IMG/VR virus record: IMGVR_UViG_3300028864_000017
Length of the DNA: 64,000 bases
Origin: a virus
Taxonomy: Duplodnaviria; Caudoviricetes
Direction: 5' to 3' (one strand)
Below, in pieces: positions 7,510 through 39,248 of the stretch. How positions within the stretch are numbered: the first letter of the stretch is position 1; every line of letters starts with the position of its first letter. The position numbers were made by a program, and so were the translations under genes. The notes under the pieces are model-generated. The model worked only from the letters and a program-made list of their open reading frames with translations, was not told the DNA's origin and made no database searches.

Positions 7510-8871
7510 TTAAAATTGAAAGATTGAATTCAAAACTGACAATCTTTTATTTATTGTAGGTAATCCAATTGGTTCAAGAAACCTATTTACGATGTGAAGC
7601 ATTGTCACATCAAATTGTTCATCATAATCTATTTTAACACCTTCTTTTTCACATATTTCATATGGATATAATCCTCTTTGATATGCAAATACGCTATTTT
7701 TAACATGATTACAATAAAAATATTTTATACGTCCTCCTCTAATATTATCATACTTTGTTTTATATTCAGAGTTTTTATTTAATAAGTAATTGTGTAAAGC
7801 TGCAGCTTTAACTGCAAAGTGAGCACCCTTAACACATAAAACATCAGTAACATCATCAATAACTTTAATTGGATAATTAGTGCAACTTGAAGTCATACTA
7901 ATATCTTCAATATTAGCCATCATGAATTGTTTTTTCAAATCTTTCACAATTAGTAATATTTTTCTAATATTCAAATTATTAGGATTAGAAAATATATATC
8001 TCAAAAACTCATAAATATTTTCTCTAACAAATGGAGGGGTAGATGATTTAACAATTTCAACACCTTTTGGATAAAAATAACTCATACTTTCATAAAATAA
8101 GCCATCTTCCCAAGCTACATTATTTATATAATGCTTTTTTTGTATGTGTAATGCTGATCTATTAATTGTTTCTAATTCAAAGTTGTGTATATTCTTAACT
8201 CCATATCTTGCAGCATATTCATCTAGCCAACCATTATATTTTTTTTCTATAAAAACTCTATCCATATGAAGAATGAAGTCTAATTCATCTCCATTAAATC
8301 CACATGACTTTATCATAGGAGCGAATGAAATATATAATGAATCAGTATCGCCGTAAATTGTAATTGGAACATCTTTTGGTAACTGAGTTACATTAGAGAA
8401 ATCATGAATAAATCTACTAAATAATACATTATAACCATTTAATTCTTTTTTATCTTCAACTAAATCATTACGATAGTAATTCAATTTTTCTAATAAATTA
8501 TCAACTGATTCATATTTATAATGAATATTATCTCCATTTCTATCTAATAAATAAAAACTACCATCTTTTTCAGCAATATATTCTAATCCAAGTAGTTGAT
8601 GAGTCTTTACATCTAAGTGCCATTCTTTATAGAAATATGTTTCTATTTTTTTAAGCATATAATTTATAACATCACGTCCTTGAGCAGTAATAGCATTTGC
8701 AATATGAGAATTTGACAATACAAATTTAGGATGAGCGAATGCTCCATATGTACCGTTAATAACCAATTTCAAAGCTAATTGCATTGCTTTTGCTCTATCA
8801 TAATCAGCCTTAGTTACATCAATTTTTGTTTTTAATTCTGCTATTTTATCTCTCTTTTCTTGTGCTGTCAT
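7510..8871 (-). CDS. family B DNA polymerase, C-terminal subunit (fingers/palm/thumb; gp43B-like)
   Basis: KLVINGTYG (motif B), YGDTDSLY (motif C), KKHY, KGVEIVKSSTP; no exonuclease domain or motif A. Confidence 0.9.
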   Translation of the reverse strand: MTAQEKRDKIAELKTKIDVTKADYDRAKAMQLALKLVINGTYGAFAHPKFVLSNSHIANAITAQGRDVINYMLKKIETYFYKEWHLDVKTHQLLGLEYIAEKDGSFYLLDRNGDNIHYKYESVDNLLEKLNYYRNDLVEDKKELNGYNVLFSRFIHDFSNVTQLPKDVPITIYGDTDSLYISFAPMIKSCGFNGDELDFILHMDRVFIEKKYNGWLDEYAARYGVKNIHNFELETINRSALHIQKKHYINNVAWEDGLFYESMSYFYPKGVEIVKSSTPPFVRENIYEFLRYIFSNPNNLNIRKILLIVKDLKKQFMMANIEDISMTSSCTNYPIKVIDDVTDVLCVKGAHFAVKAAALHNYLLNKNSEYKTKYDNIRGGRIKYFYCNHVKNSVFAYQRGLYPYEICEKEGVKIDYDEQFDVTMLHIVNRFLEPIGLPTINKRLSVLNSIFQF

Positions 8872-27949: not shown

Positions 27950-28308
27950 TAGAAGAGCCTACTTTATTAGATTATAAAGCATATAATTTGTGTTGGAATT
28001 ATTGTACTATTAATTTTAAAAAACAGATAGATTTAACAACTTTCATTAAGTATAAGGATGTTCATATTAAATATTATAATGAAGCAAGAAAAATATTTAG
28101 AAAAGAAAAATTGATAAATTTATATGATGTAGGTTTGAATATAAAACAAAAATCATCATGTAATTTAACAACTGAACAGAAAGATGAACTCATCTCAGAT
28201 TTATATAATATTCGTTCATTTGATGATATAGTAAATGATGAATCTAAATTAATAAATAATATTATAAGATCAGAAAAAATAGAGAAATTAAATAAACTAT
28301 TCAAATAA
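27946..28308 (+). CDS. hypothetical protein, C-terminal RKxKL family
   Basis: ends IRSEKIEKLNKLFK. Confidence 0.65.
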   Translation: MIEEPTLLDYKAYNLCWNYCTINFKKQIDLTTFIKYKDVHIKYYNEARKIFRKEKLINLYDVGLNIKQKSSCNLTTEQKDELISDLYNIRSFDDIVNDESKLINNIIRSEKIEKLNKLFK

Positions 28309-28325
28309 TATTTTATAAATATTAA

Positions 28326-29015
28326 ATGGATTATAAAGATTTAGTATATATTGACATTGAAACTGCAGGATTTTATCCAAATTTATCATCTCTAAAAGAA
28401 GATGATATTAGAGGATATGATCTTTTTATGCGTAAATTAGATAGAAAAAGTTTACAATTTTTGGATTGGAAAGAAGATCCAAATGATGTTTATCTCAATA
28501 AATCATCATTGATACCAGAATTTGGTAGAGTTGTTTGTGTTTCTATGTCTAGAATAACTAAAAATGATGAAATTAAAATGATGTCAATATGTGATGAGGA
28601 TGAAGAATATATAATTAAAAAAACTCAGCAATCACTAATGAATGTATCTAATAATTCTTTATTAGGTTTGAGTGGATTTTATATAAAAGGATTTGATATA
28701 CCATGGCTAAACAGAAAAATGCTGAAGTATGGATATATAATTCCTAAAATTCTTAAAACTCATAGTGTTAAGCCATGGGATATGAATGTTGTTGATCTAG
28801 CTGAGGTTTGGAAAAGTCTTGGCACATTAGAACCTGTATCATTTGATGAAATGTTATATTCTTTAAATGTTGATAGTCCAAAAGATTTAATGGCTGGTAA
28901 AGATGTTCATAAATATTTTTGGGAAACTAAAGAATTAGATAAAATTCAAAATTATTGTGAAAAAGATGTTATGGGTTGTGTTAAAGCCGCAAAAAAAATC
29001 GTACATCTAATATAA
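28326..29015 (+). CDS. 3'-5' exonuclease, stand-alone PolB-exo-like
   Basis: YIDIET, FYIKGFDIPWL, YCEKDV (DEDDy). Confidence 0.88.
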   Translation: MDYKDLVYIDIETAGFYPNLSSLKEDDIRGYDLFMRKLDRKSLQFLDWKEDPNDVYLNKSSLIPEFGRVVCVSMSRITKNDEIKMMSICDEDEEYIIKKTQQSLMNVSNNSLLGLSGFYIKGFDIPWLNRKMLKYGYIIPKILKTHSVKPWDMNVVDLAEVWKSLGTLEPVSFDEMLYSLNVDSPKDLMAGKDVHKYFWETKELDKIQNYCEKDVMGCVKAAKKIVHLI

Positions 29016-29028
29016 AAAAAATTAAAAT

Positions 29029-29220
29029 ATGAAAACAAGAACAGATTTGTTGATAGATACTCTTACTAATGATAGTGGTAGGCGTGTTTTTACTATAAAT
29101 GAAACTAAACAATTGATTAAAATTTCTCAATTAGAAGCTATTAATGATGAAGATGAATTGAATAAAGAAATTTTAAAATTTAAACAATCCTATGTAGATA
29201 GTGTCAGTTGGAAATTCTAA
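29029..29220 (+). CDS. hypothetical protein
   Basis: ORF track. Confidence 0.6.
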   Translation: MKTRTDLLIDTLTNDSGRRVFTINETKQLIKISQLEAINDEDELNKEILKFKQSYVDSVSWKF

Positions 29221-29278
29221 AATAGAAACAAATATAAATAATATGAGTATATCATATTATAAAAATTAAAAGTAATAA

Positions 29279-30355
29279 ATGACAAAAATTATAACAAGTC
29301 CAGAAAGATTTGATGAAGAAAAAGGAAATAATGTGTGTGTTTTTTTAGGTGGTCCTATTCAAGGTGCTCCTAATTGGCAAAATGATATATGTAATGATTT
29401 ATCAGGATATAAAAATTTAGTAATTACTAATCCAAGAAGAAAATCATTAGACAAATCAAAATTTAATTTTGATGAACAAGTAAAATGGGAGACAGAATAT
29501 TTAAATGAATCTGATATTTTAGTTTTTTGGATTCCAAATGAAGAAGAAAAAATAGAAGGTAGAATGTATGGTCAAACTACTAGATTTGAAGTCGGTGAAT
29601 GGATATCAAAATGTAGTGAGAAAATAATAATTGGAATTGATGATGAATTTCCAATGAAAAGATATATTAAAAATAGACTTGAAAACGATTATAATGTTAA
29701 AGTTCTTAATAATTATAAAGATGTTTTAAGCGAAGTTAAAAATAAAATAGATTTTTTATCTAATTCTAAACCAGATACTTTTTTTACATCTGATGATCAC
29801 TTTGGAAGTAAAAGAACACTAGAATTATCTAAACGTCCTTTCACTTCAGTTGAAGAAATGAATCAATGTATGATTAATTTCTGGAATTCAGTAGTTAAAC
29901 CTAATGATAATGTTTATAATTTGGGTGATTTTGGTGATTATTCATTCATTAATAAATTGAATGGTAATATATTTTTAATATTAGGAAATTATGAAATTGA
30001 TGAAATGAATAAAGATTACAAAGGTGATTTTAATTTATTTAAGAAAATGTTGTTGAAAAAAGGGTTTAAAAACGTGTATAATGATTTGATAATTTCTACT
30101 AATATTGATGATGAAAAGGTTTTACCATTTAAAGAATTTGATAAAAAAGATAATTTATTTATGACTCATGAACCATTAAATGCTGATAAAAAGTATTTTA
30201 CTCTATTTGGACATATACACGGTAGACAAATGGTAAAAAGATATGGACTAGATGTTGGTGTAGATGGACATCATTTTAAACCAATTAATATGAAAGAAGT
30301 GCTGTTTTATAAAGAAGCAATTGAAAAATTTTATGATAATAACGTATTTGAATAA
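29279..30355 (+). CDS. fusion: nucleoside 2-deoxyribosyltransferase-like domain + calcineurin-like metallophosphoesterase
   Basis: N-terminal VFLGGPIQGAPNWQ, NPRR, QVKWE, TTRFEVG; C-terminal SDDHFG, LGDFG, LGNYE, THEP, GHIH, DVGVD. Confidence 0.82.
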   Translation: MTKIITSPERFDEEKGNNVCVFLGGPIQGAPNWQNDICNDLSGYKNLVITNPRRKSLDKSKFNFDEQVKWETEYLNESDILVFWIPNEEEKIEGRMYGQTTRFEVGEWISKCSEKIIIGIDDEFPMKRYIKNRLENDYNVKVLNNYKDVLSEVKNKIDFLSNSKPDTFFTSDDHFGSKRTLELSKRPFTSVEEMNQCMINFWNSVVKPNDNVYNLGDFGDYSFINKLNGNIFLILGNYEIDEMNKDYKGDFNLFKKMLLKKGFKNVYNDLIISTNIDDEKVLPFKEFDKKDNLFMTHEPLNADKKYFTLFGHIHGRQMVKRYGLDVGVDGHHFKPINMKEVLFYKEAIEKFYDNNVFE

Positions 30356-30797: not shown

Positions 30798-31241
30798 ATG
30801 ATAATTAAAAATAAAAAAGCTTCTTATGAATATGAACTACTTGATAATTTTGTATCAGGTATTATATTAGTTGGAACAGAAATAAAATCAATTAGATTAG
30901 GTAAAGCTTCTATTGTTGATAGTTATTGTGCTTTTCAAGGTGATGAATTATTTTTATTGAATTCTCATATTGATGAATATGAATTTGGTAATAGATATAA
31001 TCATGAACCAAGACGACAAAGAAAACTTTTACTTAAAAAGAAAGAATTGTCTAAAATTCGTAAGAAAGTAAAAGAAAAAGGATTTACTATTATAGCTAAA
31101 AATATGTTTATAAATGAAAAAGGACTTTGTAAGGTTACTATTTGTATAGCAAAAGGTAAAAATACATATAGTAAAAAAGAACACATAAAAGAAAGAGATA
31201 TTAAAAGAGACACTGATAAAATCTTAAAATCTTATAAATAA
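30798..31241 (+). CDS. smpB: SsrA-binding protein
   Basis: NKKASYEY, GIILVGTEIKSIR, RKLLLKKKEL, AKGKNTYSKK..IKERD. Confidence 0.95.
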   Translation: MIIKNKKASYEYELLDNFVSGIILVGTEIKSIRLGKASIVDSYCAFQGDELFLLNSHIDEYEFGNRYNHEPRRQRKLLLKKKELSKIRKKVKEKGFTIIAKNMFINEKGLCKVTICIAKGKNTYSKKEHIKERDIKRDTDKILKSYK

Positions 31242-34819: not shown

Positions 34820-34999
34820 ATGAAATCAAAAAGTGTATTATTAGTTTTCGTTGTTTCTGTGATGTTGTGTAGTTGTTCACAAAATGGACTTTATAATAGT
34901 AAAAATACTCACAAAAACAGCACAAAGAATCATGAAGTCAATTCAAATGGTTTATATGCATATGAATATTTCAAAAATAATACAATATATATTTGGTAG
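34820..34999 (+). CDS. small lipoprotein (59 aa, not in ORF track)
   Basis: MKSKSVLLVFVVSVMLCSC signal peptide II with lipobox; -7 element TACTTTTG at 34783. Confidence 0.7.
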   Translation: MKSKSVLLVFVVSVMLCSCSQNGLYNSKNTHKNSTKNHEVNSNGLYAYEYFKNNTIYIW

Positions 35000-35023
35000 A
35001 TTAAAAACTTTATTGTAATTTTG
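34992..35023 (+). promoter_or_regulatory. Bacteroidota-type promoter, copy 1 of a duplicated 32-bp promoter
   Basis: TTTG-N20-TAATTTTG; 30/32 identical to 35760-35791. Confidence 0.8.
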
Positions 35024-35041: not shown

Positions 35042-35227
35042 CGGTTGGTAGCTCAATAGGTAGAGCAGTTGGATTAGTTAATTCTAATCGTATTAATAAG
35101 AAAAAATTTTAAAGAAGTAAGTGATTCAATATAATTAGCTAATGTGGAGAATGACTGAAAATGAGAGATTAATATTGTTAATATCATAACAGGCAAAAGA
35201 TAGGGGGTTCGAATCCTTCCCAACTGA
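35042..35227 (+). ncRNA. tRNA-like RNA with about 120-nt insert replacing the anticodon loop (intron-containing tRNA or tRNA mimic)
   Basis: acceptor cggttgg/ccaactg+A, D arm gctc-aataggta-gagc, T arm ggggg-ttcgaat-ccttc; no clean anticodon arm. Confidence 0.7.
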
Positions 35228-35243
35228 CAATAAATTATGAAAA

Positions 35244-35714
35244 ATGGAAAAAATTTTAATATTTAAAAATTTTAAGGATATTCCATTTGGAAAAATATTT
35301 CAAATAAGGTTTAAAGAACCTATGGGAATAAAAGAATGTCCATATTTATATAGATGGACATTAATTATTTTTGGATATTCATTTAGATTACACCACTGGC
35401 TTAGATCAGATGATAGACGTTTTTTTCATGATCACTCATGTGATTTAATATCAATAATAATAAAAGGCAAATACTTTAATGTAATACCAGATGAAAATGG
35501 AAATCCTGTTAAGTATTTAGCTGAAGCATGGAAGCCACGTTTTATGAAAGCAGAACAAAGACATTACTTAGATATACCAAAAGAAGGAGCTTGGACAATT
35601 TTATTGTGTTCAAAATCATATCATAAATGGGGATTCTATGTGAATAATCACAAATGGAGACCATTAAGATATTTTCATAAGTTTGGAATTATTCAAACAG
35701 CAGATTATCAATAA
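35244..35714 (+). CDS. cupin-like protein
   Basis: LHHWL, FHDHSCDLISIIIKG, RHY, WTILL, WGF pattern. Confidence 0.6.
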   Translation: MEKILIFKNFKDIPFGKIFQIRFKEPMGIKECPYLYRWTLIIFGYSFRLHHWLRSDDRRFFHDHSCDLISIIIKGKYFNVIPDENGNPVKYLAEAWKPRFMKAEQRHYLDIPKEGAWTILLCSKSYHKWGFYVNNHKWRPLRYFHKFGIIQTADYQ

Positions 35715-35759: not shown

Positions 35760-35791
35760 TTTGGTAGATTGAAAACTTTATTGTACTTTTG
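35760..35791 (+). promoter_or_regulatory. Bacteroidota-type promoter for the leader and tRNA array (copy 2)
   Basis: TTTG-N20-TACTTTTG. Confidence 0.8.
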
Positions 35792-35892
35792 TACTATCAT
35801 ATTAAAAGAAATCAAAAATAGAAAAAAATGATATTTTTTCTATTATATATAACAAAGAATAAAAAACATAACAAGATAAAATTTTAGAAATC

Positions 35893-36000
35893 ATGAGAGC
35901 AATAAGTAAACATAGTAGTTCATCAAAATCCTTTAAATTCTGGTTTAGAAAAACCAAGTTTGGAACAGATACTTCTTGTCTTATTGTTAATATAAGCTAA
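35893..36000 (+). CDS. putative attenuator leader peptide (35 aa) MRAISKHSSSSKSFKFWFRKTKFGTDTSCLIVNIS
   Basis: A-rich leader then ATG; codons 5-23 are 17/19 Ser/Lys/His/Phe/Trp, matching the downstream tRNAs. Confidence 0.75.
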   Translation: MRAISKHSSSSKSFKFWFRKTKFGTDTSCLIVNIS

Positions 36001-36037
36001 CATTAATAAATGTAAAAAAGAAATATAAATCCAAACT
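35957..36037 (+). promoter_or_regulatory. putative antiterminator
   Basis: agtttgga (35957-35964) is complementary to terminator 5' arm tccaaact (36030-36037); inner helices ttctt/aagaa, cttat/ataag, acatt/aatgt. Confidence 0.65.
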
Positions 36038-36058
36038 CAAAAAGTTTGGATTTTTTTT
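36028..36058 (+). terminator. intrinsic terminator (attenuator) in front of the tRNA array
   Basis: aatccaaact-caaaa-agtttggatt followed by a U tract. Confidence 0.88.
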
Positions 36059-36101
36059 GTTTAAATAAGTTCTTTGAAATATTAGATATGAAATAAATTA
36101 T

Positions 36102-36186
36102 GTACCTGGAGCTCGGTTGGAGACGTAAGTCGTTGAGCCAATGTCTTTTAAACATTAGGTCGTGGGTTCAAGTCCCATCAGGTACA
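36102..36186 (+). tRNA. tRNA-Lys(UUU) with enlarged D loop
   Basis: gtacctg/caggtac; aatgt-ctTTTaa-acatt; T loop ttcaagt; 20-nt D loop containing gac-gtaa-gtc. Confidence 0.85.
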
Positions 36187-36190
36187 CAAT

Positions 36191-38474: not shown

Positions 38475-39248
38475 ATGTACTACGTAATACAAGAAAATAC
38501 TTTCAAAGAAGAAAATTATGATAATTTAGTTGAAACATTAGATAGAATGAAATTACCTTATGAAGTAGTTAAGGTTTTGCCATTTGTAGAAGATTTTGAG
38601 TTTAAAACTAATAGAAAAGATGTATTTTGCTTTGGTTCTGTTAAAATGGCAAGATTAGCAAAAAAATACAAATGGTTTCCTGGTTCTCAATTGAATGATA
38701 ATCATGATTATAGAGTTTATAGTAAATATTACAAGGAAAATTTGTTGAATTATGATTCAATAGTTCAAAAATTTGGAGATGATATTAATGAAAGGACTTT
38801 ATTTTTTGCTAGACCGTGTGAAGATACAAAAACATTTACTGGAAAGGTATTTGATATGTATGAATGGATAGAATTTAGAGATAATCATTTGAATAGTGAA
38901 TATGAAACTTCATTAACAAAAGATACTGATATTCAAGTTAGTTCTGTTAAAAAAATAACAAAAGAATTTAGGTTTTGGATAGTTGGAGGAAAAGTTGTGA
39001 CTGGAAGTCTATATAGAATGGGATATTTTATTAATAGAAGTGAATTAGTTGATGATGGAGCATTAGAATTTTGCAAAGAAATGGTTAGTATTTATAATAT
39101 ATCAAATTCTTTTGTGATGGATATTTGTGAAGTGATTATTGATGGTAATCCTGAATATAAAATAATTGAATTGGGATGTATTAATTCGGCAGGTTTTTAT
39201 TCTGCAAATATGCCTAAGTTAATTAATGCTCTTGAAGAAGAATTTTAA
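38475..39248 (+). CDS. ATP-grasp domain protein (R2K/DUF4343-like)
   Basis: FARPCEDTKTFTG, EFRFWIVGGKVVTGSLY, FVMDI, IIELGCINSAGFY. Confidence 0.85.
   Translation: MYYVIQENTFKEENYDNLVETLDRMKLPYEVVKVLPFVEDFEFKTNRKDVFCFGSVKMARLAKKYKWFPGSQLNDNHDYRVYSKYYKENLLNYDSIVQKFGDDINERTLFFARPCEDTKTFTGKVFDMYEWIEFRDNHLNSEYETSLTKDTDIQVSSVKKITKEFRFWIVGGKVVTGSLYRMGYFINRSELVDDGALEFCKEMVSIYNISNSFVMDICEVIIDGNPEYKIIELGCINSAGFYSANMPKLINALEEEF

Follow-up and report, generated by a model that had tools for sequence, protein, structure and literature searches.

A valine-type tRNA gene of a huge peat phage carries a conserved, folded RNA insert

Results

The locus and its phage

The window, by which we mean the whole 64,000-nucleotide (64 kb) stretch of viral DNA analysed here, is AT-rich (23–25% GC) and codes for a T4-type large terminase, part of a family-B DNA polymerase, two DNA methylases, an NAPRTase, SmpB and a cluster of tRNA genes. 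Its terminase is 44–50% identical to those of uncultured 630–735-kb phage records, and near-identical DNA occurs in many public peat metagenome runs, every one of them a DNA run and none an RNA run. Taken together, base composition, gene content, terminase relatedness and the peat DNA runs identify the window as a fragment of a huge peat phage, whose host probably belongs to the Bacteroidota, since promoter boxes of Bacteroidota type precede the gene described here and its orthologs. Elsewhere in the window, the family-B DNA polymerase ORF (7510–8871, minus strand) matches only positions 148–236 of the 453-position Pfam profile, and this gene may be split or interrupted. Just past the tRNA cluster, 38475–39248 (plus strand) encodes an R2K-clade ATP-grasp protein (PF14243/PF18299). 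The features relevant to the interrupted tRNA gene are as follows.

30798–31241, plus strand: phage SmpB (PF01668, E 1.7e-51), 3.8 kb upstream of the element, listed as context for the proposed SmpB partnership
34992–35023, plus strand: promoter-like box TTTG-N20-TAATTTTG of the Bacteroidota −33/−7 type, ending 18 nt before the tRNA 5′ end
35042–35227, plus strand: interrupted tRNA element with 7-bp acceptor stem, D arm and T arm
35042–35074, plus strand: tRNA 5′ part (acceptor 5′ strand, D arm, A26, anticodon-stem 5′ strand, A32, U), the same in three variants
35042–35048 with 35220–35226, plus strand: acceptor stem CGGTTGG/CCAACTG, 7 bp, with C1-G72 and G2.U71
35051–35066, plus strand: D arm GCTC-AATAGGTA-GAGC
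35068–35072, plus strand: anticodon-stem 5′ strand GUUGG, followed by A32 and U at 35073–35074
35187–35227, plus strand: tRNA 3′ part, homologous to the 3′ exon of locus L010, with a compensatory change at 29-41
35187–35192, plus strand: anticodon-loop remnant U-AAC-A-G, with AAC at 35188–35190
35193–35197, plus strand: anticodon-stem 3′ strand GCAAA
35198–35202, plus strand: variable loop AGAUA
35203–35219, plus strand: T arm GGGGG-TTCGAAT-CCTTC, loop TTCGAAT
35227, plus strand: A73
35244–35714, plus strand: cupin-fold protein (PHROG 4786, which bears the annotation “cysteine dioxygenase”), in conserved synteny downstream of the tRNA family

The window has 8 matches to the promoter type, where 3.5 are expected, and a near-copy of the one at 34992–35023 lies at 35760–35791 (30 of 32 positions identical). 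In L016, L251, L256 and L257 the same box type precedes the orthologous gene by 11–18 nt, and sigma-70-like boxes lie upstream in L010 and L246; a generic sigma-70 scan did not detect the box at 34992–35023. Because the box recurs before orthologs, the gene very likely has its own promoter, as an earlier note on this DNA had proposed from the window alone. The near-copy at 35760–35791 is followed by ~240 nt with no convincing plus-strand ORF and then by a terminator-like hairpin and T run (36030–36060), so that 35760–36060 (plus strand) may encode a small RNA; the interval has no Rfam match. Downstream again, 36101–36188 (plus strand) is a tRNA-Lys(UUU)-like gene that ARAGORN misses and of which Rfam scores only the 3′ part (26 bits). 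It has an acceptor stem GTACCTG/CAGGTAC, an anticodon arm AATGT-CTTTTAA-ACATT and a good T arm, and its D loop is enlarged to ~20 nt by a mini-hairpin, GAC-GTAA-GTC. The cupin was considered as a tRNA-processing enzyme and set aside, its only match being PHROG 4786, with none in Pfam or PDB; it is retained here for synteny only.

A tRNA body interrupted on the 5′ side of its anticodon loop

The element has the 7-bp acceptor stem, D arm and T arm with TTCRANY loop of a tRNA cloverleaf, and both the pairing and an intron-permitting ARAGORN run, which calls a tRNA with a 110-nt intron, bear out the intact acceptor, D and T arms described earlier. What it lacks is a continuous anticodon arm (5-bp stem, 7-nt loop) and an above-threshold Rfam score: default ARAGORN and Rfam make no call, and RF00005 does not match even at E<=10. 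The two strands of the anticodon stem are separated by ~120 nt. When the anticodon was called by ARAGORN, three close variants gave contradictory answers (Met, Ile and Stop/Leu), which indicates that the insert boundaries cannot be set from a single sequence; these calls were dropped in favour of the N-A-C reading that holds across the family (below).

The earlier note had placed a folded domain in lieu of the anticodon loop. Comparison with relatives corrects this: the insert enters on the 5′ side of the loop, between about nt 33 and 34, and the 3′ part of the loop and the 3′ stem strand remain. It had also found no clean spliced anticodon arm, an observation that stands for the window in so far as its stem is weak, with only 3 standard pairs and mismatched end pairs (G27.A43, G31.G39), but not in so far as the 3′ loop part and stem strand are present and form a clean arm in relatives. 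Against the L010 3′ exon (GACAU-GCGAG-AGAUC), C29-G41 of L010 is replaced by U29-A41 in the window. Were the insert removed, the predicted junctions would be GCAGTTGGA + TAACAGGCAAAAG, giving a 7-nt loop, or GCAGTTGGAT + TAACAGG or AACAGG.

The insert is a conserved module with a covarying fold

Comparison with relatives and with uninterrupted orthologs delimits the insert, and a consensus fold was computed with RNAalifold on the window, L004 and L001.

35075–35186, plus strand: class-1 insert, ~112–114 nt, ends uncertain by 1–2 nt
35072–35089, plus strand: P1-like hairpin GAUUAG-UUAAUU-CUAAUC, its 5′ strand starting at tRNA nt 31, as in all anticodon-loop members
35091–35174, plus strand: rod domain closed by UAUUAAU (35091–35097) with AUUAAUA (35168–35174)
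35114–35120 and 35155–35163, plus strand: purine-rich internal-loop motifs of the rod, GAAGUAA and CUGAAAAUG, common to L010, L016, L247, L270 and L231
35120–35127 with 35149–35156, plus strand: helix AGUGAUUC with GAAUGACU, 8 bp, two compensatory double changes among three variants
35130–35133 with 35143–35146, plus strand: apical hairpin UAUA/UGUG, with conserved loop AUUAGCUAA at 35134–35142

Among the three close variants, no column varies in the exons (0/73), compared with 31/126 in the insert (Fisher 2e-7); insert and flanks diverge by ~10% while the exons are unchanged. Three of the four helices read from the window alone survive this comparison. The gattag/ctaatc stem (35072–35077 with 35084–35089) is kept in all three variants with a loop length varying by up to 12 nt, attc/gaat is part of the 8-bp helix with compensatory double changes, and tattaat/attaata is also real, though as an invariant helix it is uninformative on covariation. 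The fourth, tgtta/taaca, has no counterpart in L001 or L004 and probably does not form. Folding of the element gives a z-score of only −2.3, so that the fold is supported by its homologs and not by its energy.

Class-1 modules share an ordered set of motifs (GAARGUAA, a hairpin with a (R)UAGCUR loop, YYGAAAA) and occur in at least six independent lineages (window, L010, L016, L247, L270, L231). The apical stems of these lineages differ in sequence yet all pair (UAUA/UGUG, GUCAU/GUGAU, GUAUU/AAUAC, UGAUAU/AUAUCA, UCUUAU/GUAAGA and GAUUGA/UCAAUC), a result equalled by none of 5000 trials at random sites of the same sequences (P<1/5000), and the unpaired motifs are better conserved than the helices. 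The tRNA body and the insert are each conserved and under selection, and the central claim of the earlier note, a tRNA body interrupted by a folded domain, is upheld by homologs in which the insert is conserved and covaries. The insert occurs once in the 64-kb window, without terminal repeats or target duplication, and each large relative genome has one insert-bearing copy; a MITE or IS200-605-type mobile DNA was rejected on this single-copy distribution. Neither a 15-codon ORF in the insert nor a 49-aa ORF on the minus strand is conserved among the three variants. Pairing of the insert start with the anticodon (5 bp in L010, 4 bp in L016) was set aside because its registers differ between members.

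A family of interrupted and uninterrupted tRNAs in huge phages

The downstream cupin ORF served as a handle on the family, a single-protein scan of IMG/VR returning 20 loci and a profile scan 64, most of them on contigs of 100–675 kb. The same element is found in L001–L005 at 87–95% identity, and ~25 more loci have, in this position or close to it, a tRNA that is interrupted, usually just upstream of the cupin gene, giving a family of ~30 orthologs. All have C1-G72 and N2-U71, most have A73 and an AGRUC variable loop, and many have a T arm identical to that of the window. Sequences of the acceptor, D and T stems vary while pairing is always kept, and acceptor and anticodon stems covary across the insert. 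In the anticodon-loop members, a 3′ loop part (U)-N-A-C-N-N stands right before the anticodon-stem 3′ strand, which is complementary to a 5′ strand >100 nt upstream. Pattern scans of IMG/VR recovered only identical copies, and a scan of the metagenome collection gave, among the matches listed, no new members beyond such copies. A covariance model built on the three close variants (R1) mostly matched ordinary tRNAs through its exons and did not help to align distant inserts.

Structured inserts of 35–160 nt occupy most members, usually starting at nt 31–33 and sometimes lying in the D loop or variable region. At the class-1 site, other modules include a UUGAC-loop class (L007, L008, L017), a CCAUGACGAUGG hairpin class and a GGAAGACCGAAAGG class; all anticodon-site modules comprise a hairpin from nt 31, a closing helix and a 3–13-nt tail into the anticodon, an arrangement that amounts to a three-way junction. 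L234 and L237 keep an intact anticodon arm with 8-nt loops (AUUUACUU, AUUUACAU), their insert of ~95 nt and two hairpins lying in the D loop. L251, L253, L256 and L257 combine a hairpin at 31/32 with a 66–100-nt variable-region insert, and in L013 (2185–2278) a 19-nt hairpin separates nt 26 from nt 27. Uninterrupted family tRNAs of 74–81 nt lie directly upstream of the cupin gene in L011, L012 (2421–2501), L014/L015 and L240, with 8-nt anticodon loops (UGAAACAU, UUUAACUG, UUUUACGA), and L264 is also uninterrupted, with a 6-nt loop (AUACAU). The odd loops of the uninterrupted members, together with the varied insert sites, suggest a family that is non-canonical even without inserts and tolerates them at several positions.

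Several further features of these loci are recorded here. In L013 (2185–2278), the two hairpins between D and T arms are a UUU-loop arm and an 8-nt-loop arm (UGUAACAU), and a Ro60/TROVE gene (G004:105138–106070) lies ~7 kb away in the same phage. One or two amber-suppressor-type tRNAs (CUA) are encoded at L012 2342–2414, L014 2556–2709 and L015 3750–3903, directly upstream of the uninterrupted 8-nt-loop valine-type tRNA, which suggests stop-codon recoding in these phages. L008 has a DUF805b RNA motif at 2883–2915 (RF02914, 40 bits, above threshold), ~120 nt upstream of its interrupted tRNA.

The family has a valine-type anticodon remnant

Family anticodons are UAC, AAC, GAC or CAC, with A35-C36 invariant, and the N-A-C remnant throughout marks the family as valine-type and not proline-type. 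The earlier note had assigned a Pro-type acceptor identity from the C1-G72/A73 end; since the whole family has C1-G72 and the loop remnant is always N-A-C, this assignment is abandoned. Under the rules for E. coli ValRS, valine identity resides in A35, C36, A73 and G45, and on inspection of the sequence the window element has all four (A73 at 35227, G45 within AGAUA). Around this constant pair the family drifts: N34 runs through U, A, G and C, U33 is not always present (it is missing from L001 and L004), and several members have U at 37. G002, which has an interrupted member, also encodes a canonical G1-C72 tRNA-Val(UAC), and on the strength of this coexistence the family may not be a decoder; G006 likewise has a canonical G1-C72 tRNA-Val(UAC), and no interrupted member was found there. 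The 8-nt loops, the free wobble base and the coexisting normal tRNA-Val thus put in question whether the family decodes at all.

Canonical decoder tRNAs of related phages also carry inserts

In L261, L265 and L250, canonical decoder tRNAs (Asn, Arg, Gly, Tyr) contain 80–110-nt inserts, not of group I, in or beside the anticodon.

L261, 3214–3389 and 5747–5910: insert-bearing canonical tRNAs
L265, 2395–2573, 2682–2858 and 6800–6958: insert-bearing canonical tRNAs
L250, 4834–5014: insert-bearing canonical tRNA

These tRNAs become perfect cloverleaves once the insert is deleted, which implies that a removal route must exist in these phage systems. A 5′ motif, AUACRG..CCGAAAC, is common to their inserts, and in most of them a hairpin resembling a T loop (GUUCGAAUC) lies towards the 3′ end; from these sequence features they look like a separate class of mobile intron. 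A true group I intron also occurs among these loci, at L016 2766–2989 in tRNA-Asn(GUU) (RF00028, 70 bits, ~197 nt).

The insert matches no known ribozyme or intron class

Covariance-model searches for tRNA, tmRNA and group I introns, among the checks proposed in the earlier note, were all negative on the element. Rfam searches for ribozymes and introns (group I, group II and small ribozymes) gave no matches in the window element (E<=10) or at 15 related loci, and the same searches detected the L016 group I intron (70 bits) and a tmRNA in L261. The initial view that the insert is too short for a typical group I intron agrees with its ~113 nt and the negative RF00028 result. A group I assignment was further rejected because no P3-P9 core is present in the 113 nt, U33 pairs with A in P1 in place of a conserved U.G, and L001 has U in place of the candidate terminal G. 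For a bulge-helix-bulge (BHB) intron, inspection by eye gave no such motif at the junctions, a geometry that does not fit an insert abutting the anticodon-stem 5′ strand, and the EndA family (PF01974) is absent from five related phage records. A hammerhead-like reading of the CUGA...GAAA motifs has no stem II, and CUGA is not conserved. As for Y RNAs (YrlA), RF02553 does not match the element, and TROVE occurs in only one of five relatives.

A tmRNA-like partner of the encoded SmpB was also considered; SmpB occurs in the relative G001 as well. No canonical tmRNA was found in the window or in the 140-kb G001 (G001 being ~20% complete, a tmRNA may lie elsewhere in that genome), and in L261 a phage tmRNA (4542–4949, 100 bits) comes right after the same cupin gene. 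Set against these points, the element has G-C and not G3.U70 at 3-70, retains a D arm and anticodon-stem strands unlike the tRNA-like domain of tmRNA, and is negative in ARAGORN tmRNA mode and with RF00023. The three variants share no tag frame, since every frame contains stops and indels shift the register, and SmpB is missing from four large relatives that carry the tRNA family.

Discussion

An intron-like module is the tentatively favoured reading

Of the two readings that the earlier note had left standing, an intron removed by proteins and an unspliced tRNA mimic, both are still live. We tentatively favour the first, in which the module is intron-like and is removed by cleavage and ligation. 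The primary transcript would start ~10–15 nt upstream of the tRNA, at the Bacteroidota-type promoter, and its ends would be trimmed like those of any tRNA. The module would then be cut out endonucleolytically while the tRNA fold holds the halves together, and the halves would be resealed by an RNA ligase, RtcB in the closest relative or an Rnl2-family enzyme in other relatives, yielding a tRNA of Val type that has an AAC anticodon in a loop of 7 or 8 nt. The module itself would be a passenger whose conserved core either helps in its own excision or is what the cutting enzyme recognises.

That inserts occur sporadically among orthologs, at several sites and in several classes, is in keeping with selfish, intron-like elements. 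All five large relatives have a gene for RtcB, for an Rnl2-family ligase or for both, with RtcB in G001 (28303–29472), G002 and G003; such tRNA-repair genes are common in jumbo phages (PMC7824862), so that their presence lends the reading weak support. A search for T4 Rnl1 (PF09511) matched nothing, its controls included, and so does not bear on the question. No endonuclease candidate emerged, the EndA family being absent from the five relatives. Against removal, the D-loop and variable-region inserts of orthologs lie outside known bacterial intron sites and could be retained. The family is odd even when uninterrupted, G002 has a canonical tRNA-Val, the window stem is weak, and U33 has been lost in places.

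Alternative readings

The alternative that survives best, though we consider it somewhat unlikely, is that the RNA is never spliced and that the tRNA-like scaffold displays a structured module, for example a protein-binding or decoy RNA. The body would then direct processing of the ends, stabilise the RNA and perhaps allow valylation through A35, C36 and A73, with the anticodon nucleotides forming a single-stranded arm of the three-way junction. Consistent with display, inserts are found at four sites (D loop, 26/27, anticodon loop, variable region) and some genes have two of them, several unrelated classes share one site, and unpaired motifs are more conserved than helices. The constancy of A35-C36 while N34, U33 and N37 drift, the 8-nt loops of uninterrupted members, the canonical tRNA-Val(UAC) of G002 and the failure to find a known splicing signature or endonuclease (Rfam; EndA in five relatives) point the same way. 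Display sits poorly, however, with the sporadic occurrence of modules among close orthologs, whose uninterrupted forms imply a body that works without one, with the expectation that cargo would keep a fixed site, and with the canonical decoder tRNAs of the same phage group, whose comparable inserts need removal. The anticodon-stem complementarity kept across the insert also counts against it, though it is compatible with both models.

It is improbable that the class-1 core (GAARGUAA, the UAGCU loop and YYGAAAA) forms a new small ribozyme that catalyses its own excision or cleavage, with ligation by itself or by RtcB acting on 2′,3′-cyclic phosphate and 5′-OH ends. Such a ribozyme would account for unpaired purine-rich motifs and an architecture kept across at least six divergent lineages, for a module always at the same tRNA position and for RtcB in G001, G002 and G003. 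At 113 nt, however, the insert is well below the 197 nt of the smallest group I intron in this analysis (L016, 70 bits), no Rfam ribozyme or intron model matches even at E<=10, the 5′ junction has no conserved U.G, L001 lacks the candidate terminal G, and the 19–35-nt hairpins at the same site in other members cannot be ribozymes.

A decaying gene, disrupted by selfish DNA and now a pseudogene or landing pad, would explain the weak anticodon stem with its two mismatches, the loss of U33 in L001 and L004 and the lack of a score from the Rfam tRNA model; we regard it as highly improbable, given exons that are invariant against ~10% divergence of insert and flanks, a conserved promoter, insert helices maintained by compensatory change, and an insert that is single-copy in 64 kb and has no terminal repeats or target duplication. 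On the evidence given above, from G3.U70 to the relatives without SmpB, a tmRNA-like partner of the phage SmpB 3.8 kb upstream is scarcely credible, and that part of the earlier proposal is given up.

More broadly, and with some doubt, we suggest that a valine-type tRNA-like RNA family (C1-G72, 8-nt loop) is either a platform for modular RNA domains or the host of new ~110-nt introns, whose removal would need an unknown ribozyme activity or endonuclease together with a phage ligase. In bacteria and their viruses we know of no tRNA splicing except that of group I introns. Splicing of the module would reveal an RNA-processing route new to phage-infected bacteria; its retention would mean that phages naturally use a “tRNA scaffold” to display structured RNAs. 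The locus offers a defined test case for this choice: a single-copy, promoter-driven gene with invariant exons and a covariation-supported insert fold, uninterrupted orthologs that predict the junction, and candidate ligases in the same genomes. Four DNA runs gave short, low-depth contigs, in which the element has no variants and no insert-less joined form appears, and they do not inform the choice.

Comparison with known systems

Group I introns interrupt tRNA anticodon loops in cyanobacterial tRNA-Leu and tRNA-fMet and in Azoarcus tRNA-Ile (RF00028), and are recognised by a P1 with U.G at the 5′ splice site, a terminal G, a P3-P9 core and a length of usually ~200 nt or more. The window insert resembles them in its anticodon-loop site, in a P1-like hairpin that takes in the final nucleotides of the exon and in its sporadic presence among orthologs, and differs in having no RF00028 match, P3-P9 core, conserved 5′ U.G or terminal G. 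Archaeal BHB introns, cut by EndA and joined by RtcB, likewise occupy several tRNA positions, sometimes two per gene, and RtcB is found in some of the genomes studied here; in contrast to them, the present inserts belong to a bacterial-virus context with EndA absent from five relatives, show no bulge-helix-bulge, and are far larger and conserved in sequence. With tmRNA and YrlA-type Y RNAs the element shares a tRNA-like body bearing an extra structured domain, as well as SmpB nearby and Ro60 in one relative, but topology and identity elements do not correspond, RF00023 and RF02553 do not match, and there is no tag frame.

The closest precedent is the “enigmatic” introns that Devoto et al. (2019, Nat Microbiol, PMC6784885) described in the tRNA genes of Lak megaphages. 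The present insert, too, lies in a tRNA of a huge phage, is conserved and belongs to no Rfam class. Both groups comprise huge AT-rich phages with probable Bacteroidota hosts, and in both the inserts measure tens to ~100 nt, are conserved in sequence among relatives and have an unexplained removal mechanism. Tracing the subject further, we found no mention of tRNA introns in Al-Shayeb et al. 2020 or Iyer et al. 2021, and no explanation of megaphage tRNA introns in the literature since 2019. Unlike the Lak case, the phages here form a different group, from peat, the host gene belongs to a C1-G72 valine-type family with 8-nt loops when uninterrupted, and the insert abuts nt 31–33; the covarying fold and motif set defined here are not reported in PMC6784885. 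What is new here is the valine-type C1-G72 family with its cupin synteny, the modular inserts at multiple sites, and a class-1 module supported by covariation.
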